Made by a program: the position numbers and the translations under genes. A stretch of 64,000 bases of DNA, taken from the NCBI GenBank assembly GCA_018394315.1, contig CP074575.1, positions 1,396,615 through 1,460,614 on the forward strand, given 5' to 3'. The stretch's first letter is position 1. The number at the start of each line of letters is the position of its first letter. Positions 6,987 to 64,000 of the stretch are shown here, in pieces. The notes beneath the pieces are model-generated. The model searched no databases, was not told where the DNA came from, and saw only the letters and a program-made list of their open reading frames with translations. Origin of the DNA: Mycoplasmatota bacterium. Its GTDB lineage: Bacteria > Bacillota_I > Bacilli_A > MAG-NZ.

Positions 6987-7026
6987 TTTCATTTTATTTA
7001 TGAAATTAAGTATGTTATAATGTACT

Positions 7027-7311: not shown

Positions 7312-8949
7312 ATGAATATAGAAAAATTAATGATGGAAATTAAGGAAGAAATTAAAAGCTCAGTAATGAGCCTAGGTTATGCTGATGATTCTTTTGATGT
7401 TATCCTAGAACAACCAAAAGACAAAGCAAATGGTGATTATTCAACTAACACTGCTATGCGTCTATCAAAGATTGCTAAAAAGAACCCAAGAGTAATTGCC
7501 GAAGAAATAAAAGAAAGAATTAATTTGAAAAATTCTAGCATAGAAAGACTAGAAATTGCTGGACCAGGGTTTTTAAATATTTACTTAAATCGTGATGGAT
7601 TCTTTTCATTAATTAATAGAATTATTGATGAAGGAAGCGATTTTGGTAAAAGTAATGTAGGTGAAGGTACTAAGATATTATTAGAATATGTTTCTGCTAA
7701 TCCTACTGGATATTTACATATTGGTCATGCAAGAGGTGGGGCATATGGTGCTTCTTTAGCTAACATTATGAAGAAAGCTGGTTTTATTGTACATAGAGAA
7801 TTTTATGTAAATGATGCTGGGAATCAAATTAACAATTTAGGATTAAGTATTAAATCTAGATACTTACAAGAGTTAGGCATTGATTCAAAAATGCCTGAAG
7901 ATGGATATTTTGGTCCAGAAATCATAAAAATAGCTCAAGAGATTAAAAGCACTCATGGTGATGGGCTTAAGGAAGATTTTGATTTCTTTAAAGAATATGG
8001 ATTGACTTACTTACTTGAAAGATTAAAAGAACATTTAATCAAATATAGAATTGAGTTTGATGAATGGTTTAGAGAAAGAACTGTATATGAAGGTGATCTA
8101 AAAGAAACTATTAAACTAATAGTTGAAAATGGTTATACTTATGAATTAGACGGAGCTACATGGTTTAGAACTAGTGAATTCTTTGATGAAAAAGACCGTG
8201 TTATGGTTAAGTCTGACGGTACATATACATATATTGTCCCTGATATTGCTTATCATAAGAATAAATTCGAAAGAGGTTATGATATCTTAATTAACGTTCT
8301 TGGTGCTGATCATCACGGTTACATGCCAAGACTGAAAAGTTCTATGGAGATGATTGGTAAAGATTCTAACAAGATAGAATTTGAAATTTTGCAGATGGTT
8401 AGAATTTATCAAGATGGACAAGAAGTCAAGATGAGTAAAAGAAGTGGTAAGGCAATTGGGTTGATGGACTTAATTGAGGAAGTAGGCGTAGATCCAATAA
8501 GATACTTCTTTGCGGCTAGAGCTTTATCAAGCCCTATGGATTTAGATTTAGATCTTGCTTTGAGAAAGTCAAATGAGAATCCTGTCTACTATGCTCAGTA
8601 CGCACACGCAAGAATCTCAAGTGTATTAAGGTTGGCTAAGGAGCAAAATGTAGATATTACCCCAGTTAATAATTATGAATTCTTAAACGAGAGTGCAGAA
8701 GGATTACTTAAATTGTTAAGTAATTATACTAGAGTGATTTCAGAGTGTGCTCTTAAAAGAATTCCTCATAAATTAACAAATTACATTCAAGACCTTGCTA
8801 GTGAGTTTCATAGTTATTATAATATTGAGAAATTTATAACTGATAACTCAACTGAAACAAATGAAAAACTTAGATTAATAAAAGCGGTTAAAATAGTACT
8901 AAAGGACGCTTTGGAATTAATAGGTGTTAGTGCACCAGAAAAAATGTAA
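7312..8949 (+). CDS. argS: arginine--tRNA ligase
   Basis: EYVSANPTGYLHIGH (HIGH), KMSKR, NPVYYAQYAHAR, GVSAPEKM. Confidence 0.97.
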   Translation: MNIEKLMMEIKEEIKSSVMSLGYADDSFDVILEQPKDKANGDYSTNTAMRLSKIAKKNPRVIAEEIKERINLKNSSIERLEIAGPGFLNIYLNRDGFFSLINRIIDEGSDFGKSNVGEGTKILLEYVSANPTGYLHIGHARGGAYGASLANIMKKAGFIVHREFYVNDAGNQINNLGLSIKSRYLQELGIDSKMPEDGYFGPEIIKIAQEIKSTHGDGLKEDFDFFKEYGLTYLLERLKEHLIKYRIEFDEWFRERTVYEGDLKETIKLIVENGYTYELDGATWFRTSEFFDEKDRVMVKSDGTYTYIVPDIAYHKNKFERGYDILINVLGADHHGYMPRLKSSMEMIGKDSNKIEFEILQMVRIYQDGQEVKMSKRSGKAIGLMDLIEEVGVDPIRYFFAARALSSPMDLDLDLALRKSNENPVYYAQYAHARISSVLRLAKEQNVDITPVNNYEFLNESAEGLLKLLSNYTRVISECALKRIPHKLTNYIQDLASEFHSYYNIEKFITDNSTETNEKLRLIKAVKIVLKDALELIGVSAPEKM

Positions 8950-15584: not shown

Positions 15585-15950
15585 ATGGAAAATATATTAA
15601 TAGTAGACGACACTAAAACTAACGCATTGTTGTTAGAATTCATGTTAAGCGATTTTAATGTAAAAAGTGTATATGACTCAAAAAAAGCTTTAAAAAGTAT
15701 AAATGATAACAAGCCAGATATACTCTTACTAGATATAGTAATGCCTGGATATTCAGGGTACGATTTGCTGAAAGAAATAAAAAACGACTCTAATTTAAAT
15801 GATATAAGAGTCATTGTTGTATCGGGATTAGATAACGTTGATGCAAAAGTAAAAGCATTTGAGTTGGGCGCTGATGAATACTTTCAAAAACCCGTTAATT
15901 CTAAAAGACTTTTGAAAGTTATTAGAAACTATGATAAGTTAGTACATTAA
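15585..15950 (+). CDS. single-domain response regulator
   Basis: ILIVDD, LLDIVMPG, GADEYFQKP. Confidence 0.9.
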   Translation: MENILIVDDTKTNALLLEFMLSDFNVKSVYDSKKALKSINDNKPDILLLDIVMPGYSGYDLLKEIKNDSNLNDIRVIVVSGLDNVDAKVKAFELGADEYFQKPVNSKRLLKVIRNYDKLVH

Positions 15951-24383: not shown

Positions 24384-24480
24384 GGATTCGAACTCTCTAA
24401 ACACAAATTTAAGCTTATAATTTATTAAGTTATCAATGACATTGTAACATATGACATGGAAACTGGCTTTCCACCTTAGA
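24384..24480 (+). repeat. att-like repeat, type A
   Basis: GGATTCGAACTCTCTAAACAC...TGGAAACTGGCTTTCCACCTTAGA, then AAAAGTGAGA..TCTCACTTTT hairpin. Confidence 0.92.
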
Positions 24481-24595
24481 AAAAAGTGAGATTATTTCTC
24501 ACTTTTGACATTAACAAATTTTAGTATAAATAATACTTTTTGTTTGGATACCTTTAAATGTTCTGAGTAGGAGAAATACCGATAATATCATCGTC

Positions 24596-25759
24596 TTAAT
24601 CACTTATAACTATCAAATTAGGTAAACGTAAATATTCACAATGTATTATCAGCTCATTTTCGATAGCGTCAGTTAGTGTTATTACCTTATCATCAACTAA
24701 CAGTACATAATCAGAGAATGAACCTCCTATCATAGTGTAATTACCAAAAGTTTCTTCATAATCAAGATCATAACTATTAGAAGCATTATAATACATAGGA
24801 TTTTGATACATCCCGATATATACACCATTTCCATCAAAATAATTATTGATAATTTCCGGGACGAAGTGTTTTTCGTTCATGAATACTTTCTCAGCTGTAG
24901 TTTGACCGGGAAAAGTTTCTAGTAAAATATTGTAAGTTATATTAACTAAGTTACCTACTTTAAAGTCACTTGACACACCAGGTGCGTACTTAGTGTTACT
25001 ACCAATTCCTACAGAAGTAAGTCCTGGCTGGTATAAAGAGCTAACTAAAATATGGGATTCATCAGCTTCGACAATAGGTCCTATTATGTTATAGTTTTCA
25101 CCGATAACTGCTGGGTAATAAGCTCTTATAGCTGTAGCTTTCCAAGGATAACTAGACTTATCAAGATCCTTAATTACAAACTCGAGGTAATATCTCCAAC
25201 GTTCAGTTTTAGGGAAGTCATCAGGAATATATGTTTCGTCATTAATCTCAACCCATATATGGCCATAGTTGGATAATTTATCTGGAATAAGCAATTTATT
25301 ATCTTTTTCCTCTCTTGGTCTTCCGCCAACCATGTATTCAATAGGATACTCGCTAAAATCTCTTCTTTTACAAGCACCTTTTATTGAGCACAATTCTTCA
25401 ATAGATATCCCTAACTCATTAATGCTCGTTCTACCATTAACTTTGTAATCTGGACCAGATAACATATATGCATTACCATCTTTGAAAGCAAATACTCCTG
25501 TATAACAATTACTACCCCCACGTCCAGATATTTGTAACTCTCTATTCAAAACAACGGGCATAACGATATCCTCAGTACAAGCATCAGAAGAAATAGTATC
25601 TCTCTTCCATATCTCATAATTGCTCACTTCCCCGAGATATATAAGATCTTTCTTTGGAACTCTGTATTTATCACTTATGATTGATGCACTACGATTAAAG
25701 AAACAAGAAGAAACTATCATTATTGAAATTAAAATAATAATTGTTCTTAAAAACTTCAC
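24596..25759 (-). CDS. cassette lipoprotein paralog 1 (DUF3221/YobA-like OB domain possible)
   Basis: GTG start after AAGGGTGA; lipobox VSSC; paralogs at 48759, 50249, 62555. Confidence 0.8.
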   Translation of the reverse strand: MKFLRTIIILISIMIVSSCFFNRSASIISDKYRVPKKDLIYLGEVSNYEIWKRDTISSDACTEDIVMPVVLNRELQISGRGGSNCYTGVFAFKDGNAYMLSGPDYKVNGRTSINELGISIEELCSIKGACKRRDFSEYPIEYMVGGRPREEKDNKLLIPDKLSNYGHIWVEINDETYIPDDFPKTERWRYYLEFVIKDLDKSSYPWKATAIRAYYPAVIGENYNIIGPIVEADESHILVSSLYQPGLTSVGIGSNTKYAPGVSSDFKVGNLVNITYNILLETFPGQTTAEKVFMNEKHFVPEIINNYFDGNGVYIGMYQNPMYYNASNSYDLDYEETFGNYTMIGGSFSDYVLLVDDKVITLTDAIENELIIHCEYLRLPNLIVISD

Positions 25760-25860
25760 ATAAATCACCCTTTCTTCATAGTTGAACTCAAATAATATCA
25801 TATCAGACCCCCCAAAAAAAGAAAATAGGTTCGACAAAGTAATATTTTTGGATTATAGAA

Positions 25861-25957
25861 GGATTCGAACTCTCTAAACACAGATTTAAGCTTATATATT
25901 ATTAAGATTTCAAGCCATTATATCATGCAACATAGAAACTGGCTTTCCATGCTTGAG
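25861..25957 (+). repeat. att-like repeat, type A
   Basis: GGATTCGAACTCTCTAAACACAGATTTAAGCTTA...GAAACTGGCTTTCCA. Confidence 0.92.
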
Positions 25958-26811: not shown

Positions 26812-26895
26812 AACTATGTGATAGGTAATAATACATGACTATAAATAATAAAGGTAAGCATATGTACTGAACCCCAAAGTTCGGACTAATAAAAA

Positions 26896-27639
26896 CTAAA
26901 TCAAGCAATGTTCTCGGTATTGTACCGGGGACATTTTTAGTTTAGTTACTATCCTTTCATTATTATAATAATTAATGTATTTCTTAAGTTCTCTTATGAA
27001 CTGTTTGACTGTTTTGAACTTATTCACATGGTAAAATTCCGCCTTTAGATGAGAGAAAAAGTTTTCAGCCTTAGAATTGTCCAAACAGTTGCCTCTTCTA
27101 GACATGCTTTGTGTTATTTCCTTGTCTTCTAGATATGTTTGGAATCTTCTGTTTTGATACTGGAATCCCTGATCTGAGTGGACTATGGTATTTTTCATCT
27201 TAGTAGTAATTCCCTTTTCTAACATTTCAATAACTAGTCTTACATTGGGATTAAATCCTACTGTATAGCTTATTACTTCGTCGTTATGGATATCTATTAA
27301 CGGTGATAAGTATATCTTTCTACCATCTACCTTAAATTCAGTTATATCAGTTACTAATTTTTCTTTGAATATATTAGTGCTAAAATCCCGATTAAGTTCA
27401 TTGTTGGCTATCTTACCAACTTCCCCTTTGTATAATCTATATTTTTTCACTCGTATTTTAGCCACTAATCCTAATGATTTCATTAATCTATATACTTTCT
27501 TGTGATTAATTACTAAACCCTCATTTCTTAAAACTATGGTTATTCGCCTATAACCATATCTACCCTTATGTTTATAGTATATATTGGTTATTTTGCTTTT
27601 TATTTCTTTATCGTTATCAGAATCTATATTTTTGAGCAC
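26896..27639 (-). CDS. IS3 transposase OrfB (DDE); true 5' end likely reached by frameshift from OrfA
   Basis: YGYRRI, VTDITEF, HSDQGFQY, SRRGNCLDN..AENFFSHLKAE. Confidence 0.92.
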   Translation of the reverse strand: MLKNIDSDNDKEIKSKITNIYYKHKGRYGYRRITIVLRNEGLVINHKKVYRLMKSLGLVAKIRVKKYRLYKGEVGKIANNELNRDFSTNIFKEKLVTDITEFKVDGRKIYLSPLIDIHNDEVISYTVGFNPNVRLVIEMLEKGITTKMKNTIVHSDQGFQYQNRRFQTYLEDKEITQSMSRRGNCLDNSKAENFFSHLKAEFYHVNKFKTVKQFIRELKKYINYYNNERIVTKLKMSPVQYREHCLI

Positions 27640-27725
27640 ATCAAAATAAGTAGACTTAGCTAAGTTGGCTATCTCAAGAATAGGTTTTAGAACTCCGTGT
27701 TTTTGCCTTAGTTCAAATACTATTC

Positions 27726-28202
27726 TTACTTTTTCTTTCGTTTTCGCTCTTCCCGTTCTTGAACTAAGGCGTCTAGCTTTTTTAGATATTCTAGTTCCAA
27801 TCTTAACCTTTGGTTTTCTGCTAATAGGTCTTCATTTTTATTCAAATCCTTTGGTTTTTGTACAATCTTACTTTTTCTTCCTCTTCCATCTATGGATAGT
27901 CCATCAATGCCGTACTCATGGTATTTTCTTTCCCATTTATGTAGTGTTCCAGCAACAATACCATATTTCATGTCTGTTTCTGCGTATCCGTATTCCCAAA
28001 AATATTCAAGTATCTCAAACTTTTTTTCGCTAGATATTTTCGTGTTTTTCTTTCTCATAAATCCTGTAGTTTTACTCTTTCTAACCCACCTGTATATAGT
28101 TTCATCTGCCTTTAGGTTGAATTTATTCATTGTAGCAGTTAGACCATACTTATTATAGTAGCTAACTACTTTCACCTTAAATTCTACATCATATTTTGCC
28201 AA
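27726..28202 (-). CDS. IS3 transposase OrfA (HTH)
   Basis: MAKYDVEFKVKVV...ENQRLRLELEYLKKL. Confidence 0.9.
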   Translation of the reverse strand: MAKYDVEFKVKVVSYYNKYGLTATMNKFNLKADETIYRWVRKSKTTGFMRKKNTKISSEKKFEILEYFWEYGYAETDMKYGIVAGTLHKWERKYHEYGIDGLSIDGRGRKSKIVQKPKDLNKNEDLLAENQRLRLELEYLKKLDALVQEREERKRKKK

Positions 28203-28298
28203 AGTAAAAGCACCCCTTCCTTTCTAAGTTTACTTAGTCCGGATTTTGGGGTGCATTACAATATTGACTTACCTTTTGTTATCTATTTTATAACGTTA

Positions 28299-34891: not shown

Positions 34892-35791
34892 ATAAAGGGT
34901 AGAGCATTAGTGTATGTTACAAATGCAGATGATGACACTGTATCAGTAATCCAAACATCAGATAACCTAGTAATTGATACTATTACAGTAGGAAATACTC
35001 CACATGGATTAGCAGTAACACCAAATGGTAAGTTTGTCTATATTGCAAATGCAAATGATGATACTGTTTCAGTAATCCAAACATCTAACAATACAGTTGT
35101 TGATACTATATCAGTTGGAAGTGTTCCGAACAGAGTAGCAATAACACCGAATGGTAAGTTTGCGTATGTGGTAAACTTAAGTGGTGACAATGTTTCAGTA
35201 ATCAAAATAACAGATAGTGCAGTAGTTGATACTATAGCGGTTGGAGATTTTCCACATGGAATAGCGATAACACCAAATGGTAAATATGCATATGTTGCAA
35301 GTGTAAATGATAATTCTTTATCAGTAATCCGAACATCAGATAATTTAGTAGTAGATACTATAAGAGTTGGAACTCGGCCTATTGGAGTAGCAATAACACC
35401 AAATAGGAAATTTGTATATGTTACAAGTGAGATAGATGATAATGTATCAATAATCCAAATATCAGACAATACAGTAGTAGATACAATATCAGTTGGAAAC
35501 ACACCTTTTGGTATAGCAGTAACACCAAATGGAAAGTACGTGTATGTTACAAATCATAATGATGACACTGTATCAGTGATTCAGACATCCGACAACACAG
35601 TAGTAGATACTATAACAGTTGGAAATGGACCAATCGGAGTAGCATTAACACAAAATAGTCAGTTTGCATATGTTACAAATCATTTTGATGACAATGTATC
35701 AGTAATCAGAATATGTGATAATACAGTAGTTGATATTATTACAGTTGGACATCTTCCACGTGAATTAGCAGTAACACATAATCGAGCTTGA
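34892..35791 (+). CDS. YVTN/YncE 7-bladed beta-propeller protein (ATA at RBS-optimal position; GTG at 34910)
   Basis: Seven ~42-aa YVTN...VSVI...VGxxPxGxAxTPNGK repeats. Confidence 0.88.
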   Translation: MKGRALVYVTNADDDTVSVIQTSDNLVIDTITVGNTPHGLAVTPNGKFVYIANANDDTVSVIQTSNNTVVDTISVGSVPNRVAITPNGKFAYVVNLSGDNVSVIKITDSAVVDTIAVGDFPHGIAITPNGKYAYVASVNDNSLSVIRTSDNLVVDTIRVGTRPIGVAITPNRKFVYVTSEIDDNVSIIQISDNTVVDTISVGNTPFGIAVTPNGKYVYVTNHNDDTVSVIQTSDNTVVDTITVGNGPIGVALTQNSQFAYVTNHFDDNVSVIRICDNTVVDIITVGHLPRELAVTHNRA

Positions 35792-35970
35792 TTTAAGAAA
35801 ATTTAATCAATTTCTTCTTCGGGTTTGCAATATTAGACATATATAAATATTACTATTAGAAAGTTAGAATTAGCTTGAAACTCGGATAATGAGATAGAAT
35901 CAATTGGGACTAGGGATGAATATTTATTTGAGAAGAGGATTCAAAACCTCTTTTTTTTGCCTTAAATGCG

Positions 35971-42830: not shown

Positions 42831-43181
42831 ATGAACCAATATTATACTAATAAACCTAATGAAGTAAACGAAATTCAAACTCATGAAGTTCATCAGGATG
42901 ATGAGCGATTAGTACCTGGGCTAATTGGCTTAGGTTTACTTGGATATGGTTATGGTAGACCTGGCTATGGATATGGTTATGGTGGACCTTGGTATGGCTA
43001 TGGTTATGGTAGACCTGGCTATGGATATGGTTATGGTAGACCTTGGTATGGCTATGGTTATGGTGGACCTGGATATGGCTATGGTTATGGTGGACCTGGA
43101 TATGGTTATGGTGGACCTGGGTATGGCTATGGTTATGGTAGACCTAATTGTGGACATGGAAGACCTTGTTCCTATCGTTAA
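42831..43181 (+). CDS. Gly/Tyr-rich repeat protein (spore coat-like)
   Basis: AGGAGG RBS; DERL..GLGLLG then (GYGYG-R/G-P)n; upstream CATATACTA. Confidence 0.7.
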   Translation: MNQYYTNKPNEVNEIQTHEVHQDDERLVPGLIGLGLLGYGYGRPGYGYGYGGPWYGYGYGRPGYGYGYGRPWYGYGYGGPGYGYGYGGPGYGYGGPGYGYGYGRPNCGHGRPCSYR

Positions 43182-45244: not shown

Positions 45245-45339
45245 GACTCAAAATCGTTAAATACGGATTTAGGCTTATATATTATTAAGTTTTCGAAGGC
45301 ATTATATAATATGACATAGAAACGTTTTTCCATCCTAGA
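45245..45339 (+). repeat. att-like repeat, type A, with degenerate core
   Basis: GACTCAAAATC...GATTTAGGCTTATATATTATTAAGTTTTCG...GACATAGAAACGTTTTTCCATCCTAGA. Confidence 0.8.
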
Positions 45340-45493
45340 TAAAAAAAACAATGATTTATCCCTGGAAAAGCGAAAAATATATCTTGTTGTCTTGATATTA
45401 GTATGTGATCTACAAATTTTTCTGCTATGATTTATTTTAATTCAAATATGATAAACAAAGGTAAGTAAAATATGCTTACCTTTGTTTAATAAA

Positions 45494-45604
45494 TGGCACT
45501 CCAGGAGAGGTTAGTACTCAATAAACAAGAATTGAAGATTGTGTTTCTGATTCGATTTTTATTAACTCAAGTACATTATACACTTTGACACGGGCACATA
45601 CTCA
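45494..45604 (+). repeat. tRNA 3'-end fragment plus divergent arm (type C-like)
   Basis: TGGCACTCCAGGAGAGGTTAGTACTC, then ATTCGATTTT...TCAAGTACATTATA as at 58664. Confidence 0.65.
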
Positions 45605-45818
45605 AATTACCATTTTTTTAATAAATGTTGTGGTACTATAGTAAGTAGTGACAGTTCATCAACATCTAACGTAGAAAGTATAGTATATGAGGTCCAAATG
45701 GTTCAGATGGTACTTATTATATAAACATTAAAAGAATTTCTAATACTTCAAATATTACCGAAGCTGTTGCTGTAGCTTAAATATTGGTTAACTCAAATAA
45801 CGAGAGGAGAGTTTTTCG

Positions 45819-46553
45819 ATGACTAGATTTAAATTTATATTTATATTTTCTATGATAGTACTTCCACTTATTGGATGTGAAAATAGAAATACAATTGATC
45901 CAGTAAAGGAATATGATGAAAACATAAGTGAATCAAGTAATAACAATGAGGCTGAAATATCAACTATATGTGGTGACGGTCATGATGGACATTTATGTTA
46001 TGAAGATAGATCATACAACATCATTAAAATCACTGATGAATACAAACTATATAAATCCATCGATAAGATGAGGACCGAATTTGTTCAAAATTATTTATTT
46101 GACATTGATATAATTCATAGGATATATTACTACTTTGTCGCAGATGTAGAATATGATTTTATAGCACTTTCAGAGGGTCATGAATATGATCTTAAAGATG
46201 TAGATAGAGATTTCCTATTGGATTATTATGACTTTCACCTAAAAGAGACAGAACATAAGGGATGTTATGTTAATGGAACACCAGAGTGTTTTAAGGGATT
46301 TATTCTGACCAAAAAGGTAGGAGAATATAAATTATATACACCTACTAAAGAAATACCAACCACAGGTATTAGAGTGCTTCTTTATGAAACGGATGAAAAG
46401 AAAGTTTATACCACTAATTACTATACAGCAAACTATAAATTTACTCATAGTGGTGTTGAATATTCGCTCAAAGATGCTTACTTAAGCTTTCCTCAAGAGA
46501 TAATCGACAAAATAGATTTACATTTAGAAATAGAATATGTGAATAACGGTTAG
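45819..46553 (+). CDS. hypothetical lipoprotein
   Basis: GAGGAG RBS, lipobox LIGC. Confidence 0.7.
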   Translation: MTRFKFIFIFSMIVLPLIGCENRNTIDPVKEYDENISESSNNNEAEISTICGDGHDGHLCYEDRSYNIIKITDEYKLYKSIDKMRTEFVQNYLFDIDIIHRIYYYFVADVEYDFIALSEGHEYDLKDVDRDFLLDYYDFHLKETEHKGCYVNGTPECFKGFILTKKVGEYKLYTPTKEIPTTGIRVLLYETDEKKVYTTNYYTANYKFTHSGVEYSLKDAYLSFPQEIIDKIDLHLEIEYVNNG

Positions 46554-46730
46554 ACATGGTCATACGTATATATAATTGTTATAAAAAAGATAAAACTCTT
46601 GAATAAGTTTCTTAAAACAGAATATATCTAAGCTTAATAAGTTTACGGGAAGAAGAACAAATTGATTGTAACAATTATCAACCTTATAACTACGTAAATT
46701 CCTTCGTTCTATTTTTCTACTTTTTTATGT

Positions 46731-46908
46731 ATCTCATTTCATAAATGGAGATATACATTTGCAACCATGTCTCTTTGGAGTAGCAAGGATTTAAAATTCG
46801 TACGCAAGACACTTGACATACTACAAACAAACAATAACCTACTTACATCTAAACAATGATGATATGAGACAAGCTCACACTATAACACGTCCGGTCTTAA
46901 GCATATAA
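46731..46908 (+). pseudogene. tyrosine recombinase/integrase C-terminal remnant (frameshifted)
   Basis: Manual translation: ISFHKWRYTFATMSL...DLKFVRKTL; shifted frames give (G)HTT and TITYLHLNNDDMRQAH...stop, matching HxxR, LGH and catalytic Tyr. Confidence 0.8.
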
Positions 46909-46979
46909 TAAACTAAAAAGGAGAGATAATAGTCTCTCTTTGGGTAGTGCAAAATAATCGGACCACTATCACTTTTTAA

Positions 46980-47089
46980 TGGCACCCAGGAGAGATTCGA
47001 ACTCTCTAAACACTGATTTAAGCTTATATATTATTAAGTTTTCAAAAGCATTATAACATACGACATGGAAACTGGCTTTCCACCTTAGA
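46980..47089 (+). repeat. tRNA 3'-end plus type A att-like repeat
   Basis: TGGCACCCAGGAGAGATTCGAACTCTCTAAACACTG...TGGAAACTGGCTTTCCACCTTAGA. Confidence 0.93.
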
Positions 47090-47282
47090 AAAAAACGAAA
47101 AATATTTTTCGTTTTCTAATGTAATGATAATAGATAAAGATTCTCTACCCTACAGATATAACCAGAAGGTTAGTGTTTTTCTGATATTAGTTGTCGTATG
47201 TACTGTAATTTGGTAGTTACAAAAGTATATGATAAAATTGAAATAAGTTAGGAAATGATTATCAAAATAAAGGGGGAATAAG

Positions 47283-48488
47283 ATGAATAAAATATTAACC
47301 ATGTTTTTTCTATTAGTGTTAAGTAGTACTTTAATAGCGTGTGAGAAGGAAACAGTTCCATTGAATGAGGGTGTAAAAAACCCATTAGTAACTGAAGGGA
47401 ATTCTGAGTTTGCTTTTGATATCTTCAGGGAGTTAAATAATGAAGATTATAATGAGAATATTTTTATATCTCCTTTTAGTATTTCGAGTGCACTAGCAAT
47501 GACTTTGAATGGAGCAGCAGGAGATACTAAAGATTCAATGCAAACTACACTGCAACTAAAAGACATAAATATTGAGGATATGAATAATGGGTTTGCACAT
47601 ATAAATTACATGTTAACAAATCTTGATGAAGATGTTGAAATTAATATCGCAAATTCTCTTTGGGTGAAAGATGAATACATGTTGAACAAACAATTTGAAT
47701 TTGATATTAAAAGTAATTTTAATGCGAATGCTACTTTGCTAGATTTTGAAGATGATAAGTCGGTAGATGTAATTAATGAATGGGTAAGTGACAAGACTAA
47801 TGATTTAATAGATGAAATGATTAAAGGAATAGATCCATATGCTGCATTAATCTTAATAAATGCGATATATTTTAATGGTTCTTGGCAAGATGAATTTAAT
47901 CCTAGCAAGACCCAATCAAAAGATTTTATTACATTAGATGGAAGTATCATGCAAGTTGATATGATGAGAAGAATAGATGAAATTGATTATTATGAAGACA
48001 ATGAAATCATAGCTGTAAAACTACCATATGGCGATGGATTAATTAGTATGTACTGTGTTTTGCCTAATGGAAATGAAGACATAAATTCTGTAATTTCGGA
48101 GATGAACGTAGATAAGTGGAATGATTTAAGAAATGAAATGAACTACTTTTATGAAGTTACTCTTGAGTTACCAAAATTTAAAATGGAATATGGAATTAAA
48201 GGATTAAACGATGCTTTGGTAAATCTAGGTATGGACGTAGCATTTGATGAAAGAGCATATTTTCCTGATTTAATAGAGGGAATGGAAGATAATCTATATA
48301 TAAATGCAGTAAACCATAAAGCGGTAGTTGACGTTAGTGAAGAGGGGACAGAAGCGGCCGCAGTTACATCTGTAGAAGTAGAAGTAGAAAAAAAAGCGAG
48401 TCGAACCTTTATAGCAAATAGACCGTTTATGTTTATAATAGGTGATGAAGAAGGAAATATATTATTTATAGGAAAGAAGGTAGCATAG
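47283..48488 (+). CDS. serpin lipoprotein, copy 1
   Basis: Lipobox LIAC; NIFISPFSI, INAIYFNGSW, EEGTEAAA hinge, FIANRPF. Confidence 0.93.
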   Translation: MNKILTMFFLLVLSSTLIACEKETVPLNEGVKNPLVTEGNSEFAFDIFRELNNEDYNENIFISPFSISSALAMTLNGAAGDTKDSMQTTLQLKDINIEDMNNGFAHINYMLTNLDEDVEINIANSLWVKDEYMLNKQFEFDIKSNFNANATLLDFEDDKSVDVINEWVSDKTNDLIDEMIKGIDPYAALILINAIYFNGSWQDEFNPSKTQSKDFITLDGSIMQVDMMRRIDEIDYYEDNEIIAVKLPYGDGLISMYCVLPNGNEDINSVISEMNVDKWNDLRNEMNYFYEVTLELPKFKMEYGIKGLNDALVNLGMDVAFDERAYFPDLIEGMEDNLYINAVNHKAVVDVSEEGTEAAAVTSVEVEVEKKASRTFIANRPFMFIIGDEEGNILFIGKKVA

Positions 48489-48548
48489 TTGGCAATCAGT
48501 AATGCATAATCTTAATAATTTACACATGATTAATGGAAAAGGTATTTT

Positions 48549-48644
48549 GATTCGAATTCTCTAAACACTAATTTAAGCTCATAAACTATTAAGTTTTCGA
48601 AGACATTATAACATATGACATGGAAACTGACTTTCCACCTTAGA
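48549..48644 (+). repeat. att-like repeat, type A
   Basis: GATTCGAATTCTCTAAACAC...TGGAAACTGACTTTCCACCTTAGA. Confidence 0.92.
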
Positions 48645-48758
48645 AAAAAAGTGAGATTATTTCTCACTTTTGACATTAACTGATTTTAGTTCAAATAATA
48701 CCTTTTATTGGTACCCTTAAACGTTCTGAGTAGGAGAAATACCGATAATACCATCGTT

Positions 48759-49934
48759 TCAATCACTAATAACTATCAAATTAGGTAAATGTAAATATTC
48801 ACAATGTATTATCAGTTCATTTTCGATAGCATCAGTTAGCGTTATTACCTTATCATCAACTAACAGTACATAATCAGAGAATGAACCTCCTATCATAGTG
48901 TAATTACCAAAAGTTTCTTCATAATCAAGCTCATAACTATTGGAAGCATTATAATACATAGGATTTTGATACATCCCGATATATACACCATTTCCATCAA
49001 AGTAATTATTTATAATTTCTGGGACAAAGTGTTTTTCGTTCATAAACACTTTCTCTGCTGTAGTCTGACCAGGACCAGTTTCTAGGTAAATACCGAAAGT
49101 TATATTAACGAGGTTACCAACTTTAAAATCGTTTGATACCCCATCGGCATACTCAGTTTTCTCACTAATAGAAACATATGTTAATCCCGGCTGGAATAAA
49201 GATTGTACTAAAATATCGTGCTCATCAAAATCGACAATTGGTCCAATTATGTTGTTGTTTACACCAACAATTGGTGGATAATATGCTTTCACTGCGGTGG
49301 CTGTCCAAGGATAACTGGATTTATCAAGATCTTTTACTTCGAATTCTAGATGATATCTCCATTGTTCGATCTCAGGGAATTCATCAGAAGTTTCAGTATC
49401 TTCTGGAATTTCAACCCATATATGTCCAAAGTTAGATAGTTTATCCGGAATAAGTAGTTTATTTCCTATTTTATCTCTTGGCCACCCACCAATCATATTT
49501 GCATCGGATAACATTTTAGCTTCTTTGGTAAAATCTCTTTTTTCGCATGCTCCTTTTATGGAACACAATTCTTCTATAGATATCTCTAATTCTTTAATAC
49601 TCGTTCTACCATTAACTTTATAATCTGGACCAGATAACATATATGCATTACCATCTTTGAAAGCAAATACTCCTGTATAACAATTACTCCCCCCCTGTCC
49701 AGATATTTTCCATTCGTTATTTAATAATACAGGCCATACAATATCTTCAGTACAATTTTCAGAAGAGATAGTGTCCCTTTTCCATATTTCATATTTGTTG
49801 GTTTCACCTATATAGATAAGATCTTTCATTGGTATTTTGAATCTATCACTTATGACTGATACACTAGGATTATTATTACATGAAGAAACTAATACTATTG
49901 TTGTTAAAATAATGAATACTTTCAAATACTTCAC
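48759..49934 (-). CDS. cassette lipoprotein paralog 2
   Basis: GTG start after AAGGGTGG; lipobox VSSC. Confidence 0.8.
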   Translation of the reverse strand: MKYLKVFIILTTIVLVSSCNNNPSVSVISDRFKIPMKDLIYIGETNKYEIWKRDTISSENCTEDIVWPVLLNNEWKISGQGGSNCYTGVFAFKDGNAYMLSGPDYKVNGRTSIKELEISIEELCSIKGACEKRDFTKEAKMLSDANMIGGWPRDKIGNKLLIPDKLSNFGHIWVEIPEDTETSDEFPEIEQWRYHLEFEVKDLDKSSYPWTATAVKAYYPPIVGVNNNIIGPIVDFDEHDILVQSLFQPGLTYVSISEKTEYADGVSNDFKVGNLVNITFGIYLETGPGQTTAEKVFMNEKHFVPEIINNYFDGNGVYIGMYQNPMYYNASNSYELDYEETFGNYTMIGGSFSDYVLLVDDKVITLTDAIENELIIHCEYLHLPNLIVISD

Positions 49935-50035
49935 ACGAACCACCCTTTCTTCACACTTGTACTCTAATAATATCATATCAGACCAAAAAAAATAGAAAAT
50001 TAGATTTGACAAAGTAATATTTTTAGATTAGAGAA

Positions 50036-50132
50036 GGATTCGAACTCTCTAAACACTGATTTAAGCTTATAAAATATTAAGATTTCAAAGACATTATAAC
50101 ATATGACATGGAAACTGACTTTCCACCTTAGA
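50036..50132 (+). repeat. att-like repeat, type A
   Basis: GGATTCGAACTCTCTAAACACTG...TGGAAACTGACTTTCCACCTTAGA. Confidence 0.93.
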
Positions 50133-50248
50133 AAAAAAAGTGAGATTATTTCTCACTTTTGACGTTATTTATTTTTAGTACAAATAATGCTTTTGTTTAG
50201 GTACTAATAAGTGTTCTGAGTAGGAGGAATACCGATAATATCATACTT

Positions 50249-51412
50249 TTAATCACTTATAACTATCAAATTTGGTGAATGCAAATATTCACAATGTACT
50301 AATAGTTCATTTTCGATAGCGTCAGTTAGAGTTATTACTTCATCATTAACTAACAGTACGTAGTCTGAGAATGAACCTCCTATTATAGTATAACCTCCTA
50401 AAGTTTCTTCATAATCATGATCATAATTATTAGCTACATTATAATAAATCGGAAAATTTTGGTGCATACCAATGTAGACGCCATTGTCATGAAGGTAATT
50501 ATTAATTATTTCAGGCACAAAGTGTTTTTCATTCACTAACACTTCCTTAGCTGTCCTATTAGGATAGCTTTCTAGTATAAAATCATAAGATATATTAACT
50601 AAGTTACCTACTTTAAAGTCACTTGACACACCAGGGGCATACTTAGTATTACTATCAATTTTTACAGAAGCAAGTCCTGGCTGGTATAAAGTGTTAACTA
50701 AAATATGAGACTCACCAGCTTCGACAATTGGTCCTATTATGTTATAGTTTTCACCGACCCATGCAGGGTAATAAGCTCTTACAGCTGTAGCTTTCCAAGG
50801 ATAACTAGACTTATCGAGATCAATAATTACAAACTCGAGGTAATATCTACAACGTTCAGTTTTAGGGAAGTCACCAGGAAGATATGTATCGTCATTAATC
50901 TCAACCCATACATGGCCATAGTTGGATAGTTTATCTGGAATAAGCAATTTATTATCTCTTTCTTCTATTGGTCTTCCACCAACCATGATTTTAATAGGGT
51001 ATTCGCTAAAATCTCTTATTTTACAAGCACCTTCTATTGAGCATAATTCCTCTATAGATATCCCTAACACATTAATATTTGTTCTACCATTAACTTTATA
51101 ATCTGGACCAGATAACATATATGCATTACCATCTTTGAAGGCAAATACTCCAGTATAACAATTACTACCCCCTTGTCCAGAAATTTGTAACTCTCTATTC
51201 AAAATAACGGGCATAACGATATCTTCAGTACAAGCACCAGAAGAAATAGTATCTCTTTTCCATATCTCATAATTGCTCACTTCCCCGAGATATATAAGAT
51301 CTTTCTTTGGAACTCTGTATTTATCACTTATGATTGATGCACTACGATTAAAGAAGCAAGAAGAAACTATCATTATTAAAATTAAGGTAGTAATTGTTCT
51401 TAAAAACTTCAC
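50249..51412 (-). CDS. cassette lipoprotein paralog 3
   Basis: GTG start after AAGGATGA; lipobox VSSC. Confidence 0.8.
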   Translation of the reverse strand: MKFLRTITTLILIMIVSSCFFNRSASIISDKYRVPKKDLIYLGEVSNYEIWKRDTISSGACTEDIVMPVILNRELQISGQGGSNCYTGVFAFKDGNAYMLSGPDYKVNGRTNINVLGISIEELCSIEGACKIRDFSEYPIKIMVGGRPIEERDNKLLIPDKLSNYGHVWVEINDDTYLPGDFPKTERCRYYLEFVIIDLDKSSYPWKATAVRAYYPAWVGENYNIIGPIVEAGESHILVNTLYQPGLASVKIDSNTKYAPGVSSDFKVGNLVNISYDFILESYPNRTAKEVLVNEKHFVPEIINNYLHDNGVYIGMHQNFPIYYNVANNYDHDYEETLGGYTIIGGSFSDYVLLVNDEVITLTDAIENELLVHCEYLHSPNLIVISD

Positions 51413-51512
51413 ACAAATCATCCTTTCTCCATGCTTGTACTCTAATAGTATCACATCAAAGCCTAAAAAAAGAAAAATTGGTTCGACAAAGTAATATTTT
51501 TGGATTAGAGAA

Positions 51513-51608
51513 GGATTCGAACTCTCTAAACACTGATTTAAGCTTATATATTATAAAGTTTTCAAGCCATTATATCATACGACATGGAAACTGGCTTTCC
51601 ACCCTAGA
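51513..51608 (+). repeat. att-like repeat, type A
   Basis: GGATTCGAACTCTCTAAACACTG...TGGAAACTGGCTTTCCACCCTAGA. Confidence 0.93.
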
Positions 51609-52693: not shown

Positions 52694-52972
52694 TTATACT
52701 TTCAGAGTCGAGCCACTCACATCACAAAGATTAGTACCATTCTGTCCACAGGTATTTGAACCTACTGAGCCAGCAACTAATACTCCATCTCCGCAACACA
52801 CATTACCTGCATCTCTAGTTTTTAAGTTAGTACTCTCATTACAAACATTAAGATTTACTTTTTGTTCGCATGGATTACCACCTACTGGATCACATTCCTG
52901 ATTAAGCGTAGAACTCCCTCCACAATATGGTCTCGAAACATTTACCCCCGCCTGGACTTTTTTGAATTTCAT
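52694..52972 (-). CDS. Cys-rich putative RiPP precursor peptide (92 aa, 8 Cys)
   Basis: AAGGAGGT RBS; 12 bp downstream of the rSAM gene; rich in Cys/Gly/Asn/Ser. Confidence 0.75.
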   Translation of the reverse strand: MKFKKVQAGVNVSRPYCGGSSTLNQECDPVGGNPCEQKVNLNVCNESTNLKTRDAGNVCCGDGVLVAGSVGSNTCGQNGTNLCDVSGSTLKV

Positions 52973-52984
52973 TAAATTACCTCC

Positions 52985-54343
52985 TTAATTGTATTTGATT
53001 TTTACTGCGCTTATTAAATTATCATGTACAGATTGATATGTATACTTACAATGTTCTTCTTTATCAACTAAATTATTTACCATCTCATATGGACAACCAC
53101 CAGTACAGACAGGTAAATACTCACATTCTGCACATACCTTATCCAAAGTTGGATCGTACGCTGTCCAAGTAACAGAAGTCGCGTTGGATAAATTTAATCC
53201 ATCTTCAATATCGCCTACTTCCTCATTATTTTCAGTAGAATGTATCCAGCATTTACTTAATTTACCATTAGGTGTGATCAAATAATTAAGAATATTCACC
53301 GCACCACAGGGTGTTTGAGGAATAAAACTATAACTAGCTCCCGTGTATATCCCTTTTTCTTTAAGATATTCATTCAATTCCTCGAGTCGACCTTTAAAAT
53401 CCTTCAGTGATAGCATTTTATTACTATCCATTTTTACATTAGATGTCCATTCTTTAACTAGCCCTAACGATACTCCATTCATACTATTGCTTCCTAATAA
53501 ACCGTTTATTTTTAAATAATCAATTATATCCTTAAAATACTCTATGTTCGTATAATCTACATTAACACGAATATTTACAGGTAGTTTTCCTTGACAAGCT
53601 CTTAGCCCTCTAATAATGTCATTAAAACTTTCATTTGAGCCATATTTATAATATCTACGATTATTATGAATATCTTTTGGTCCATCAACCGTCACCTGCA
53701 AGCGCTCTACTTTACACCGGATTAGTAAATCAACCATATCTTCAGTAAGTAATGTGCCATTAGTAATCATTGAAGCTTTATAGCTAACATTTTTCTCAAC
53801 GCATTTCTCTATAAAAAAACGTGATAATTCCTCAATAGTCCCTGCCTGAAGTAAAGGTTCACCACCATACCATGTCACACTTAGGTTCGATAAATGACCT
53901 ATTCTCTCTTTTACAAAATCTTTAAGTTTTCGTATGATTTCCGAAGTCATGCTCTCATCCCGATTTTTTTCATAACAGTAAAAGCAATCCAAATTACAAT
54001 CAATTGTCGGCAAAATCGTAAGATGCATACTTCGTTCATTATACTTAGCGTGCTGAAATCTAATCTTTAATCGTTCTACCTCGTTTAAGTTAGAAGTTAC
54101 TAAAAAATTTTGTTTGATAAGATGTTCATACATTTCAGGTTGTTCTGAAGCTAAATAGTCGCATCGTTCCTTATTAAAATCAAACAAGAAATTTTTAAGT
54201 TCATTATCACTTGACATTATCCCTCCAGAAAACGTATTTGCTATTATCCATTGATAATCGTCATGCTCACATGCAATACAAATATTATATATTGAAGGTT
54301 TATATTGAACAATCGATAACATTCTTTTATCATCTCTTTTCAT
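52985..54343 (-). CDS. radical SAM/SPASM peptide maturase
   Basis: CNLDCFYC, YGGEPL, ITNGT, TVDG; SPASM CGA..Cx and CAECEYLPVCTGGC. Confidence 0.92.
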   Translation of the reverse strand: MKRDDKRMLSIVQYKPSIYNICIACEHDDYQWIIANTFSGGIMSSDNELKNFLFDFNKERCDYLASEQPEMYEHLIKQNFLVTSNLNEVERLKIRFQHAKYNERSMHLTILPTIDCNLDCFYCYEKNRDESMTSEIIRKLKDFVKERIGHLSNLSVTWYGGEPLLQAGTIEELSRFFIEKCVEKNVSYKASMITNGTLLTEDMVDLLIRCKVERLQVTVDGPKDIHNNRRYYKYGSNESFNDIIRGLRACQGKLPVNIRVNVDYTNIEYFKDIIDYLKINGLLGSNSMNGVSLGLVKEWTSNVKMDSNKMLSLKDFKGRLEELNEYLKEKGIYTGASYSFIPQTPCGAVNILNYLITPNGKLSKCWIHSTENNEEVGDIEDGLNLSNATSVTWTAYDPTLDKVCAECEYLPVCTGGCPYEMVNNLVDKEEHCKYTYQSVHDNLISAVKIKYN

Positions 54344-55291: not shown

Positions 55292-55388
55292 GGATTCGAA
55301 CTCTCTAAACACTGATTTAAGCTTATATATTATTAAGTTTTCAAAAGCATTATAACATACGACATGGAAACTGGCTTTCCACCCTAGA
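55292..55388 (+). repeat. att-like repeat, type A
   Basis: GGATTCGAACTCTCTAAACACTG...TGGAAACTGGCTTTCCACCCTAGA. Confidence 0.93.
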
Positions 55389-55581
55389 AAAAAACGAAAA
55401 ATATTTTTCGTTTTCTAATGTAATGATAATAGAGAAAGATTCTCTACCCTACAGATATAACCAGAAGGTTAGTGTTTTTTTGATATTAGTTGTCGTATGT
55501 ACTGTAATTTGGTAGTTACAAAAGTATATGATAAAATTGAAATAAGTTAGGAAATGATTATCAAAATAAAGGGTGAATAAG

Positions 55582-56793
55582 ATGAATAAAATATTAACCA
55601 TGTTTTTTCTATTAGTGTTAAGTAGTACTTTAATAGCGTGTGAGAAGGAAACAGTTCCATTGAATGAGGGTGTAAAAAACCCATTAGTAACTGAAGGGAA
55701 TTCTGAGTTTGCTTTTGATATCTTCAGGGAGTTAAATAATGAAGATTATAATGAGAATATTTTTATATCTCCTTTTAGTATTTCGAGTGCACTAGCAATG
55801 ACTTTGAATGGAGCAGCAGGAGATACTAAAGATTCAATGCAAACTACATTGCAACTAAAAGACATAAGTATTGATGATATGAATAATGGGTTTGCATATA
55901 TAAATTACATGTTAACAAATCTTGATGATGATGTTGAAATTAATATCGCAAATTCTCTTTGGGTTAAAGACGAATACACATTGAACAAACAATTTGAATT
56001 TGATGTTAAAAGTAATTTCAATGCGTATGCTACTTTGCTGGATTTTGAGGATGATAAGTCGGTAGATGTAATTAATGAATGGGTAAGTGACAAGACTAAT
56101 GATTTAATAGATGAAATAATTAAAGGAATAGATCCATATGCTGCATTAATCTTAATAAATGCGATATATTTTAATGGTTCTTGGCAAGATGAATTTAATC
56201 CTAGCAAGACTCAATCAAGAGATTTTACTACAATAGACAATAATGTTATACAAGTTGATATGATGAACAGAACCGATGAAATCGGTTTTTATGAGGATAA
56301 TGAAATCACAGCTGTAAAACTACCATATGGTGATGGATCAATTAGTATGTATTGTGTTTTGCCTAATGGAAATGAAGACATAAATTATATAATTTCCGGG
56401 ATGAACGTAGATAAGTGGAATGATTTAAGAAATGATATGAACTACTATTATGAAGTTACTCTTGAATTGCCAAAATTTAAGATGGAATATGGAATCAAGG
56501 CATTAAATGATGCATTAATTAAACTAGGAATGGATATTGCGTTTGATAACAGAGCATATTTTCCTGATTTAATAGAGGGAATGGAAGATAATCTATATAT
56601 AAATGTAGTAAGCCATAAAGCGGTAGTTGACGTTAGTGAAGAGGGGACTGAGGCGGCTGCGGTTACATCTATTACAGTGCCAGGTTCATCTGCTTTAGTA
56701 GAAAGACACACCTTTATTGCAAACAGACCGTTTATGTTTATAATAGGTGATGAAGAAGGAAATATCTTATTCATAGGAAAAAAAGTAACATAA
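55582..56793 (+). CDS. serpin lipoprotein, copy 2
   Basis: N-terminus identical to copy 1; different reactive centre loop. Confidence 0.93.
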   Translation: MNKILTMFFLLVLSSTLIACEKETVPLNEGVKNPLVTEGNSEFAFDIFRELNNEDYNENIFISPFSISSALAMTLNGAAGDTKDSMQTTLQLKDISIDDMNNGFAYINYMLTNLDDDVEINIANSLWVKDEYTLNKQFEFDVKSNFNAYATLLDFEDDKSVDVINEWVSDKTNDLIDEIIKGIDPYAALILINAIYFNGSWQDEFNPSKTQSRDFTTIDNNVIQVDMMNRTDEIGFYEDNEITAVKLPYGDGSISMYCVLPNGNEDINYIISGMNVDKWNDLRNDMNYYYEVTLELPKFKMEYGIKALNDALIKLGMDIAFDNRAYFPDLIEGMEDNLYINVVSHKAVVDVSEEGTEAAAVTSITVPGSSALVERHTFIANRPFMFIIGDEEGNILFIGKKVT

Positions 56794-56845
56794 TTAATAA
56801 AGGGTGTTTTTATGATAGTAGAAGTTAAAATGGAACAGGTATTTT

Positions 56846-56940
56846 GATTCGAACTCTCTAAACACTGATTTTAGCTTATATATTATTAAGATTTCAAGCC
56901 ATTATATCATAAGACATTGAAACTGGCTTTCCACCCTAGA
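56846..56940 (+). repeat. att-like repeat, type A
   Basis: GATTCGAACTCTCTAAACACTG...TGAAACTGGCTTTCCACCCTAGA. Confidence 0.92.
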
Positions 56941-58394: not shown

Positions 58395-58478
58395 ATATCT
58401 TATTCATAGGAAAAAAAGTAACATAATTAATAAAGGGTGTTATTATGATAGTAGAAGTTAAAATGGAACAGGTATTTT
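58395..58478 (+). pseudogene. remnant 3' end of a further serpin cassette
   Basis: Near-identical to 56762-56845 (ILFIGKKVT* plus downstream flank up to the core). Confidence 0.85.
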
Positions 58479-58570
58479 GATTCGAACTCGTCATACATAG
58501 GTTTTAACACTTTCTTTAGTTAATAAATTAATGATAATTATAATACATTATATATACTTTATGTCACTCT
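58479..58570 (+). repeat. att-like repeat, divergent arm type B
   Basis: GATTCGAACTCGTCATACATAGGTTTTAACACT...CATTATA...TATGTCACTC. Confidence 0.75.
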
Positions 58571-61815: not shown

Positions 61816-62329
61816 AAATTTTTGCGGTTACAATAATGGTCAAATCAATGAATCTAGACTACAAAAGATTATGAAATTCATACTTTTCATAGTCTTTTTT
61901 GTGTACATCTAACAAATGAATTCAAAAATTTCTTTAGACCGCTTCTTTTTAATACCCAGTAGAATAACCAAGATATAATGTGAAATATTACAATTTATAT
62001 TAATAAATAGGTAACTGCTGCAATTACACTTTTCCCTGTGTCAACTCTTTAAGTTTCATCTAATCATCTCGTTAAACAAATTAACTTAGAAAGAATTTTG
62101 TCGAGTTGGTGTTATTTACAATCCTATGAGAAAGTTTAAAAAACTTAACAAGGATGATGTTGAAATAGTTACAATAAGTCCTAAAGTCCTAAAATCTATT
62201 CTTTATTATTTAAGGTATGCAGAACAAACTCTTAAAGTACTAAAAAAAATAGGTAGTCGATTAAAGAGTGAATCATGGTTTTTCGCAACACATGATTTCA
62301 ACTTTTATCACTTACCTATGCTATTTTAA

Positions 62330-62439
62330 TGGCACCCCAGGAGAGATTCGAACTCTCTAAACACTAATTTAAGCTTATATATTATTAAGTTTTCAAGTAA
62401 TTATATCATACGACATGGAAACTGACTTTCCACCTTAGA
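62330..62439 (+). repeat. complete tRNA 3'-end (Arg-like) plus type A att-like repeat
   Basis: Minus strand GAGAG-TTCGAAT-CTCTC-CTGGGGT-G-CCA = T arm, acceptor 3' strand, discriminator, CCA; no anticodon or D arm. Confidence 0.93.
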
Positions 62440-62554
62440 AAAAAAGGTGAGATTATTTCTCACTTTTGACATTAACTGATTTTAGTACAAATAATACCTT
62501 TTATTGGTACCCTTAAACGTTCTGAGTAGGATAAATACCGATAATACCGTCGTT

Positions 62555-63730
62555 TCAATCACTTATAACTATCAAATTAGGTAAATGTAAATATTCACAA
62601 TGTATTATCAGTTCATTTTCGATAGCATCAGTTAGCGTTATTACCTTATCATCAACTAACAGTACATAATCAGAGAATGAACCTCCTATCATAGTGTAAT
62701 TACCAAAAGTTTCTTCATAATCAAGATCATAACTATTGGAAGCATTATAATACATAGGATTTTGATACATCCCGATATATACACCATTTCCATCAAAGTA
62801 ATTACTTATAATTTCTGGGACAAAGTGTTTTTCGTTCATAAACACTTTCTCTGCTGTAGTCTGACCAGGACCAGTTTCTAGGTAAATACCGAAAGTTATA
62901 TTAACGAGGTTACCAACTTTAAAATCGTTTGATACCCCATCGGCATACTCAGTTTTCTCACTAATAGAAACATATGTTAATCCCGGCTGGAATAAAGATT
63001 GTACTAAAATATCGTGCTCATCAAAATCAACAATTGGTCCAATTATGTTGTTGTTTACACCAACAATTGGTGGATAATATGCTTTTACTGCGGTGGCTGT
63101 CCAAGGATAACTGGATTTATCAAGATCTTTTACTTCAAATTCTAGATGATATCTCCATTGTTCTATCTCAGGGAATTCATCAGAGGTCTCTGTGTCTTCT
63201 AATATTTCAACCCATATATGACCAAAGTTTGATAGTTTATCGGGAATAAGTAATTTATTTCCTATTTTATCTCTAGGCCACCCACCAATCATATTTGCAT
63301 CGGATAACATTTTAGCCTCTTTGGTATAATCTCTTTTTTCACACGCTCCTTTTATGGAACATAATTCCTCTATAGATATCCCTAATTCTTTAATACTCGT
63401 TCTACCATTAATCTTATAATCTGGACCAGATAACATATATGCATTACCATCTTTGAAAGCAAATACTCCTGTATAACAATTACTCCCCCCCTGTCCAGAT
63501 ATTTTCCATTCGTTATTTAATAATACAGGCCATACAATATCTTCAGTACAATTTTCAGAAGAGATAGTGTCCCTTTTCCATATTTCATAATTGTTGATTT
63601 CACCTATATAGATAAGATCTTTCATTGGTATTTTGAATCTATCACTTATGATTGATGCACTAGGATTATTATTACATGAAGAAACTAATACTATTGTTGT
63701 CAAAATAATGAATACTTTAATATACTTCAC
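62555..63730 (-). CDS. cassette lipoprotein paralog 4 (near-identical to paralog 2)
   Basis: GTG start after AAGGGTGA; lipobox VSSC. Confidence 0.8.
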   Translation of the reverse strand: MKYIKVFIILTTIVLVSSCNNNPSASIISDRFKIPMKDLIYIGEINNYEIWKRDTISSENCTEDIVWPVLLNNEWKISGQGGSNCYTGVFAFKDGNAYMLSGPDYKINGRTSIKELGISIEELCSIKGACEKRDYTKEAKMLSDANMIGGWPRDKIGNKLLIPDKLSNFGHIWVEILEDTETSDEFPEIEQWRYHLEFEVKDLDKSSYPWTATAVKAYYPPIVGVNNNIIGPIVDFDEHDILVQSLFQPGLTYVSISEKTEYADGVSNDFKVGNLVNITFGIYLETGPGQTTAEKVFMNEKHFVPEIISNYFDGNGVYIGMYQNPMYYNASNSYDLDYEETFGNYTMIGGSFSDYVLLVDDKVITLTDAIENELIIHCEYLHLPNLIVISD

Positions 63731-63829
63731 AAAAATCACCCTTTCTCCACACTTGTACTCTAATAATATCATATCAGGCCCAAAAAAAAGAAAAATAGGT
63801 TCGATAGAGTAATATTTTGGATTAGAGAA

Positions 63830-63926
63830 GGATTCGAACTCTCTAAACACTGATTTAAGCTTATATATTATTAAGTTTTCAAAAGCATTATAACATACGA
63901 CATGGAAACTGGCTTTCCACCTTAGA
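63830..63926 (+). repeat. att-like repeat, type A, followed by a serpin-cassette leader
   Basis: Arm as at 46994/55292; 63927-64000 matches the leaders upstream of both serpins. Confidence 0.93.
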
Positions 63927-64000
63927 AAAAAACGAAAAATATTTTTCGTTTTTTAATGTAATGATAATAGAGAAAGATTCTCTACCCTACAGATATAACC

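Follow-up and report, generated by a model that had tools for sequence, protein, structure and literature searches.

A tyrosine-integrase remnant hidden between annotated genes was found in a stretch of 64,000 nucleotides from a Mycoplasmatota bacterium (the window), where it links an array of 25 repeated sites to an intact enzyme, its regulator and their target site in one island. The array is headed by an intact integrase beside tRNA-Arg(TCT), has an empty counterpart in a relative, and holds gene units that are duplicated from core to core. It is an unusually large version of known genomic-island building, and its small gene units are probably trimmed and reshuffled by the head integrase. 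The explanation we favour, and regard as fairly probable, is tandem accretion at the tRNA, with units later trimmed at the core and reshuffled through a predicted activity of this enzyme. Taken on its own, the remnant is ordinary.

The initial annotation had described a broken tyrosine-recombinase tail, a terminator and a tRNA 3' end about 70 bp past the stop. The recombinase remnant was confirmed in frames starting at 46731, 46817 and 46831 (Table 1). The first frame translates as ISFHKWRYTFATMSLWSSKDLKFVRKTL and the third as TITYLHLNNDDMRQAHTITRPVLSI, which ends at the stop. The His (46817) and Tyr (46840) codons are separated by 23 nt, compared with 27 nt in the intact paralog, and the remnant therefore has two frameshifts. 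Its broken frame cannot encode an enzyme, and the detectable part covers only about the last 60 residues. The terminator and the tRNA end were likewise recovered, with the tail copy starting 71 bp past the stop. In this copy the acceptor-stem run is short by one base, and the one-base gap resembles the "damaged" fragments in the available account of tRNA islands (PMC4383910).

Table 1. Features of the array and related loci (window positions unless marked C1)
Feature	Position	Strand	Evidence
Remnant piece A, HxxR box (H 46740, R 46749)	46731-46814	+	tblastn, family profile, hhalign
Remnant piece HTT, second frame, His of LGH motif	46817-46825	+	sequence
Remnant piece B, nucleophile Tyr codon 46840 and stop	46831-46908	+	tblastn, family profile
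Terminator-like hairpin, integrase end to tRNA tail	46921-46938	- (strand scored by scan)	terminator scan, folding
tRNA-Arg(TCT) 3'-end copy: tail 46980-46993, T-loop core 46994-47004	46980-47004	-	
Conserved arm: extended -10-like motif ~56 nt from core start, palindromic box 47066-47082, hairpin 47092-47115	47005-47115	-	
Decayed element: degenerate arm, 244-aa lipoprotein-like ORF (45819-46553), remnant, tRNA tail	45245-46993		
Second integrase remnant (mid-protein), left of tRNA tail at 62330	62120-62245	+	tblastn, family profile
Third integrase remnant	C1:1470177-1470269		tblastn, family profile
Array part in window, 16 of 25 core-bearing sites	23788-64000		
Serpin unit, copy 1 (PF00079 gene 47283-48488)	46994-48548		
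Serpin unit, copy 2	55293-56845		
Serpin unit, copy 3 (start in window, on to C1:1462003)	63831-64000		
Two units with paralogous ~400-aa lipoprotein-like genes	48549-51513		
Further lipoprotein-like unit copies	24385-25861 and 62345-63830		
Smaller tRNA/tmRNA-anchored stacks	C1:657820-685500, 1043096-1078500, 253400-270000, 386500-394100, 638100-641300, 1-7950		

When the whole genome was searched by tblastn with the intact paralog, piece A alone was matched with 61% identity over 28 aa (E 0.001), and pieces A and B jointly reached E 6e-5. Against 3042 six-frame fragments from the window and the next 20 kb, a five-sequence family profile detected piece A with E 6.8e-9, a score favoured by the same-genome paralog that the profile includes; piece B alone gave E 0.02. 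The hhalign probability was 96%. Together, tblastn, family profile and hhalign refute a chance reading of AT-rich intergenic DNA, which we consider scarcely credible. The DNA similarity of the remnant to intact genes is near background and its pieces have no match in Pfam (including PF00589, the family proposed in the initial annotation for checking them) or PHROGs; two of the pieces are colinear and lie relative to the tRNA tail as the genes of all nine close family members do. Region 46731-46908 is evidently the twice-frameshifted C-terminus of a tyrosine integrase and the remnant a tyrosine recombinase pseudogene, with PF00589-type homology seen indirectly through profile, tblastn and hhalign. 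Piece A scores 84, 81 and 78 against the Arg, tmRNA and Ser paralogs, respectively, and piece B scores best with the tmRNA paralog. By sequence alone the remnant cannot be attributed to the Arg-type paralog; it is a diverged family member and no recent copy of the head integrase.

No tRNA gene was found within the window. The one tRNA-Arg(TCT) of the genome (C1:c1479789-1479865) lies about 19 kb to its right, and an intact gene for a 318-aa integrase (C1:1478743-1479699), preceded by a 70-aa XRE gene, ends 89 bp from the 3' end of this tRNA. The enzyme matches PF00589 (E 8e-32) and has all catalytic residues; R, K, H, R, H and Y are invariant in all five aligned family members. The initial annotation had suggested that an intact homolog elsewhere could act in trans. 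Genome-wide tblastn did recover such a homolog beside the same tRNA-Arg, but its location, about 35 kb from the remnant, is the head of the array in the same island and not an unrelated locus. From here it may act on the array in trans.

A Pfam scan of the head integrase found no arm-binding domain. Because it has core-binding and catalytic domains without an arm-binding Pfam match, it can be called a "simple" recombinase, in the sense applied to arm-less enzymes such as Xer and Int-Brujita in the text available from PMC8138268. The XerC and XerD assignments were rejected on NCBIfam scores (142 bits vs a cut-off of 335 and 139 vs 330), as was IntI (TIGR02249, 62.5 vs 265 bits); the score also falls below the XerA cut-off. 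The XerC/D-type label of the initial annotation thus gives way to that of a simple tRNA-targeting integrase, which fits most closely. More distant paralogs elsewhere in the genome (23-26% identity) are likelier to be Xer genes.

The close integrase family comprises nine matches at E of 1e-60 or below, found in three of the eight genomes of the family, and in all nine the integrase ends 71-96 bp from a tRNA or tmRNA 3' tail. Intact paralogs of the head integrase adjoin tRNA-Ser(TGA) (55%) and tmRNA (50%). Its nearest named records are labelled Izemoplasmatales, Mycoplasmatota or Tenericutes, and the 15 loci found in viral contigs are all 22-29% identical, with no near relative among them. The head element and the Ser(TGA) element share 91% identity in their backbones (C1:1474989-1478369 in the head element, a stretch that includes a DNA methyltransferase gene), although their integrases are just 55% alike. 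No relaxase or conjugation genes were found among the head-element ORFs scanned.

The array consists of 25 sites on one strand, between and beyond the remnant and the head integrase, and extends past the window to the intact XRE gene, the integrase and tRNA-Arg. Each site is a T-loop core with an arm of about 100 bp. A site profile built from 17 exact-core copies and run over the genome gave 30 matches, of which 26 are in the island (25 with a core and one partial) and four are weak matches elsewhere. The 11-bp core is the reverse complement of the T-loop region; exact copies number 18 in the whole genome, 17 in array sites and one in the tRNA, all of them on a single strand. Median spacing over the 25 inter-site intervals is 1488 bp, with 21 of them shorter than 2 kb, and 17 of the 25 units hold one ORF of at least 75 aa. 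The gene nearest the right-hand core is on the minus strand in 12 units and on the plus strand in 13.

The tRNA tail is kept at just three of the 25 sites (46994, 62345 and 73767, in extended window numbering). At the other 22 it is missing right at the core; the core itself is kept, sometimes altered, and most arms are conserved, with several degenerate. An integrase remnant lies immediately left of the tail at all three tail-bearing sites and at none of the 22 others (exact p 4e-4), and the remnant at 46731 therefore marks the end of a decayed unit (45245-46994). Of the initial proposal that it is a relic of the enzyme that acts on the array, the tie between the integrase family and the sites holds, but the remnant is not the only enzyme of the array: it is one of three and marks where its own decayed element ends on the tRNA side. 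Among 17 distinct tail-less flanks, 11 start with C. These flanks match tRNA tails at 7.1 of 15 positions vs 6.0 in random DNA (p 0.0008, against a background not matched in composition), and one is 11/15 identical to the Ser(TGA) tail; they are possibly decayed tails or tails of other tRNAs. Comparison of the arm-side half-site with the tail-less flanks revealed no mirror symmetry (3.6 vs 3.5 of 10, p 0.42).

Further comparison with relatives revealed an empty site. In G002, 42 bp separate tRNA-Arg from the homolog of the window gene at 15585-15950, vs 67 kb here, and these approximately 67 kb are therefore inserted. A relative of the same genus, G001, has six repeat matches over four contigs with different cargo; no close integrase was found in its assembly, which is 55% complete. 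On one G001 contig (L033:316-2311), two metabolic-looking genes are flanked by two repeats. In the present genome (G000), a 76%-identical match to them (C1:1503210-1505199) is found outside the array and has no such repeats. The repeat-flanked pair is a possible case of gene capture.

Three serpin units (91-94% identity) and four lipoprotein-like units (79-96%) are repeated from core to core. The serpin arms differ by 0-1 nt and are the closest three of 231 arm pairs (median 13), a count that excludes the partial site and three arms that are short or deviant. Similarity among the serpin units ends at the core and the neighbours are different for each copy, a pattern that fits a core crossover with the arm carried along. 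In the pair 48549/62345 (96% identical), 9 of the first 80 nt differ vs 5 of the next 220 (p 0.003). Given this concentration of differences near the start, the arm did not move together with the unit here, which points to an exchange within the arm. An assembly artefact was rejected as the source of the duplicates, since the copies are 79-96% alike and never identical. Exact-pattern scans of metagenome contigs gave no matches.

Individual units show further features. In a unit with PF03845 (spore-permease-like), the right-hand 112 bp are 93% like those of the serpin unit (56762-56873 and 58395-58506), and the arm at 58479 represents a second arm type, like that at 42717. The unit at 52694-54343 holds a radical SAM gene (PF04055) followed by a 92-aa Cys/Gly-rich ORF, and the two resemble a SPASM-type peptide modification pair. 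A Gly/Tyr-rich repeat ORF (42831-43181) makes up a 560-bp unit. The gene at 34906-35835 has a 126-bp tandem repeat and a paralog in the tmRNA stack. An IS3-type element (26861-28281; rve, HTH_21), of which the genome has three further copies at 99%, is inserted beside the site at 28299.

In the proposed mechanism, small integrative elements, consisting of an XRE regulator, a simple tyrosine integrase and cargo, would insert repeatedly at the T-loop of tRNA-Arg(TCT). Every insertion would leave a junction of arm, 11-bp core, tRNA tail and the integrase end of the older element, and the remnant would be such an end, decayed through ordinary mutation. The junction with arm, core and tail would be a regenerated attP, as follows from the accretion model in the available text of PMC5704250. 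The head integrase could then recombine this attP with a weak T-loop-like site deeper inside the older element. Such recombination would remove the tail together with integrase and backbone, with the break exactly at the core, so that the arm-proximal cargo stays behind as a minimal unit. Minimal units may be excised and reinserted core to core, in cis or in trans, and a second route may be RecA-type exchange within arms. This explanation draws support from the adjacency of integrase and tRNA-Arg, the exact cores on a single strand, the remnants at all three tails and the G002 empty site, as well as from the serpin arms, the tail loss at the core in 22 of 25 sites and the G001 arm with other cargo. 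Against it stand the arm mosaic of the pair 48549/62345, the asymmetry of the tail-less flanks and their weak tRNA-likeness, the divergence of the remnant, and the lack of a close integrase in G001.

Several of these points would be expected if the array were a passive field of scars, in which accretion was followed by ordinary deletion and point decay, duplications arose through RecA exchange between the ~100-bp arms, and the integrase is inactive on tail-less sites. The arm mosaic, the presence of RecA in the genome, the weakly tRNA-like flanks (with the one 11/15 match to the Ser(TGA) tail), and the several degenerate arms and inserted IS3-type element all agree with such a history. Random deletion, however, should often spare a 15-nt tail, whereas it is lost at the core in 22 of the 25 sites, with most arms kept, and each of the three serpin copies retains its own full arm. 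We see passive decay as doubtful, while giving it more weight than any other alternative.

The arms also carry a promoter-like module, which bears on whether the host has domesticated the array as an integron-like platform. Under this reading one integrase would be retained for capture and reordering of cargo, and arm promoters would drive the next unit under XRE control. An extended -10-like motif is present in 22 of the 25 arms, 55-58 nt from the core start (read towards the core), and a palindromic box in 19. Searching the genome for the box together with the -10 yielded 55 matches, compared with 14-22 in three shuffles; 17 of the 55 are array arms and one lies directly upstream of the Arg integrase. 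Two Ser arms carry a variant, which also lies upstream of the Ser(TGA) integrase. Moreover, in 100 kb of the relative G004, which also contains 30 same-strand tRNA-Phe-like sites, a different box precedes seven of nine tmRNA-type sites and one tmRNA-type integrase. Box pairing is thus element-specific in three cases (Arg, Ser(TGA) and tmRNA), in each of which arms and cognate integrase carry the matching box. From their positions, XRE may use the box as its operator, and the -10 may act as a promoter. The predominance of one-ORF units and the starts of the ten minus-strand genes checked, 59-260 nt past a core, would also suit a platform. The arm -10, however, faces with the nearest-to-core gene in only 12 of 25 units, so that a general role as cassette promoter is not supported, and the head element is still of mobile type, its backbone and that of the Ser(TGA) element being 91% identical. 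Domestication of this kind is improbable. One-mismatch -10 words occur in all ten AT-rich leaders and so say nothing on whether cassette genes lack promoters of their own.

Integrons and CALIN elements are arrays of small, often one-gene units with related sites between them, headed in integrons by a single tyrosine recombinase. The array resembles integrons in its recombinase head and its small, often one-gene units, but differs in lacking IntI and an attC-like single hairpin, in its mixed gene orientation and in sites that come from the tRNA T-arm. In two sites folded, no attC-like long imperfect hairpin was found, only separate hairpins (T-arm, box and terminator), and at 42000-64000 no Rfam family scored meaningfully. 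An integron assignment was therefore rejected on IntI score, site folding and gene orientation (12 minus and 13 plus). Int-Brujita is reportedly promiscuous and without directionality. The head integrase shares with Xer and Int-Brujita a make-up of core-binding and catalytic domains only and, unlike Xer, is below the XerA/C/D cut-offs (PMC8138268, text available).

Tandem accretion of ICEs and IMEs with cis-mobilizable elements (CIMEs) has been reviewed (PMC5704250), and several features of a CIME array are found here: next to the target gene end lies an intact integrase, att-like sites on one strand delimit units that lack an integrase, and a relative has the empty site. As in the review, so far as its available text goes, integration is repeated at one tRNA 3' end, the intact element adjoins the gene, and decayed integrase-less units retain att sites. 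Unlike the arrays in that text, the present one has 25 sites and mostly one-gene units of ~1.5 kb, repeats arm plus core with the target-gene end kept at only 3 of 25 sites, and contains certain unit types three to four times at different positions. In Dehalococcoides, according to the accessible parts of PMC3146451, many tandem islands likewise stand behind one t(m)RNA gene (ssrA) with a T-loop crossover and a conserved motif beside the repeat, and 15 islands are without an integration module. The ssrA islands differ in that DsiB is a serine recombinase and each island is bounded by 20-bp direct repeats of the gene end; those parts report no within-strain duplicate islands, whereas duplicates are present here. 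Islander-type tRNA islands share the tyrosine integrase, the tDNA 3' fragment and a crossover in the T-stem region (PMC4383910, in part). By its rule of an integrase and a fragment per unit, the same source counts four tandems of at least three among 3919 islands. This rule would miss most units here, which have neither their own integrase nor a fragment.

In a literature search of limited coverage, arrays of this kind were not found described for the lineage. The size of the array, the apparent shuffling at unit level and the box/-10 module common to arms and integrase promoter are unusual. A broader idea, that Izemoplasmatales-like Mycoplasmatota have a form of non-integron cassette shuffling in which a simple tRNA-targeting integrase works through regenerated attP junctions, cutting its own elements down to one-gene cassettes that it reorders and duplicates, and XRE-controlled promoters in every arm, matching the integrase promoter, allow joint switching of recombination and cargo expression, is put forward tentatively and as rather unlikely. 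One gene and a few sites of 150 bp suffice here to test whether tRNA arrays that lack integrases work as live cassette systems or are only scars. Should units move core to core, tRNA-targeting integrases could build integron-like arrays of surface and secreted protein genes without attC chemistry, and such arrays would escape island finders in which every unit needs both an integrase and a tRNA fragment.

Smaller stacks in the genome are anchored at Ser(TGA), tmRNA, His, Ser(GCT), Gln and Trp (Table 1), and several include an integrase or remnants of their own. Some sites lie away from the locus of their tRNA type: tRNA-Phe-like sites are found within the Ser(TGA) stack (C1:667300 and 668467), and His-type sites are distant from tRNA-His (C1:1815787 and 1819752). 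In G004 (C1:117000-157000; L040, L049), 13 sites of tRNA-Trp anticodon type are found among Ser(GCT) tail sites behind tRNA-Ser, and these mixed sites bound units of 0.2-3 kb. A tRNA-Sec was also predicted, at C1:712683-712779.
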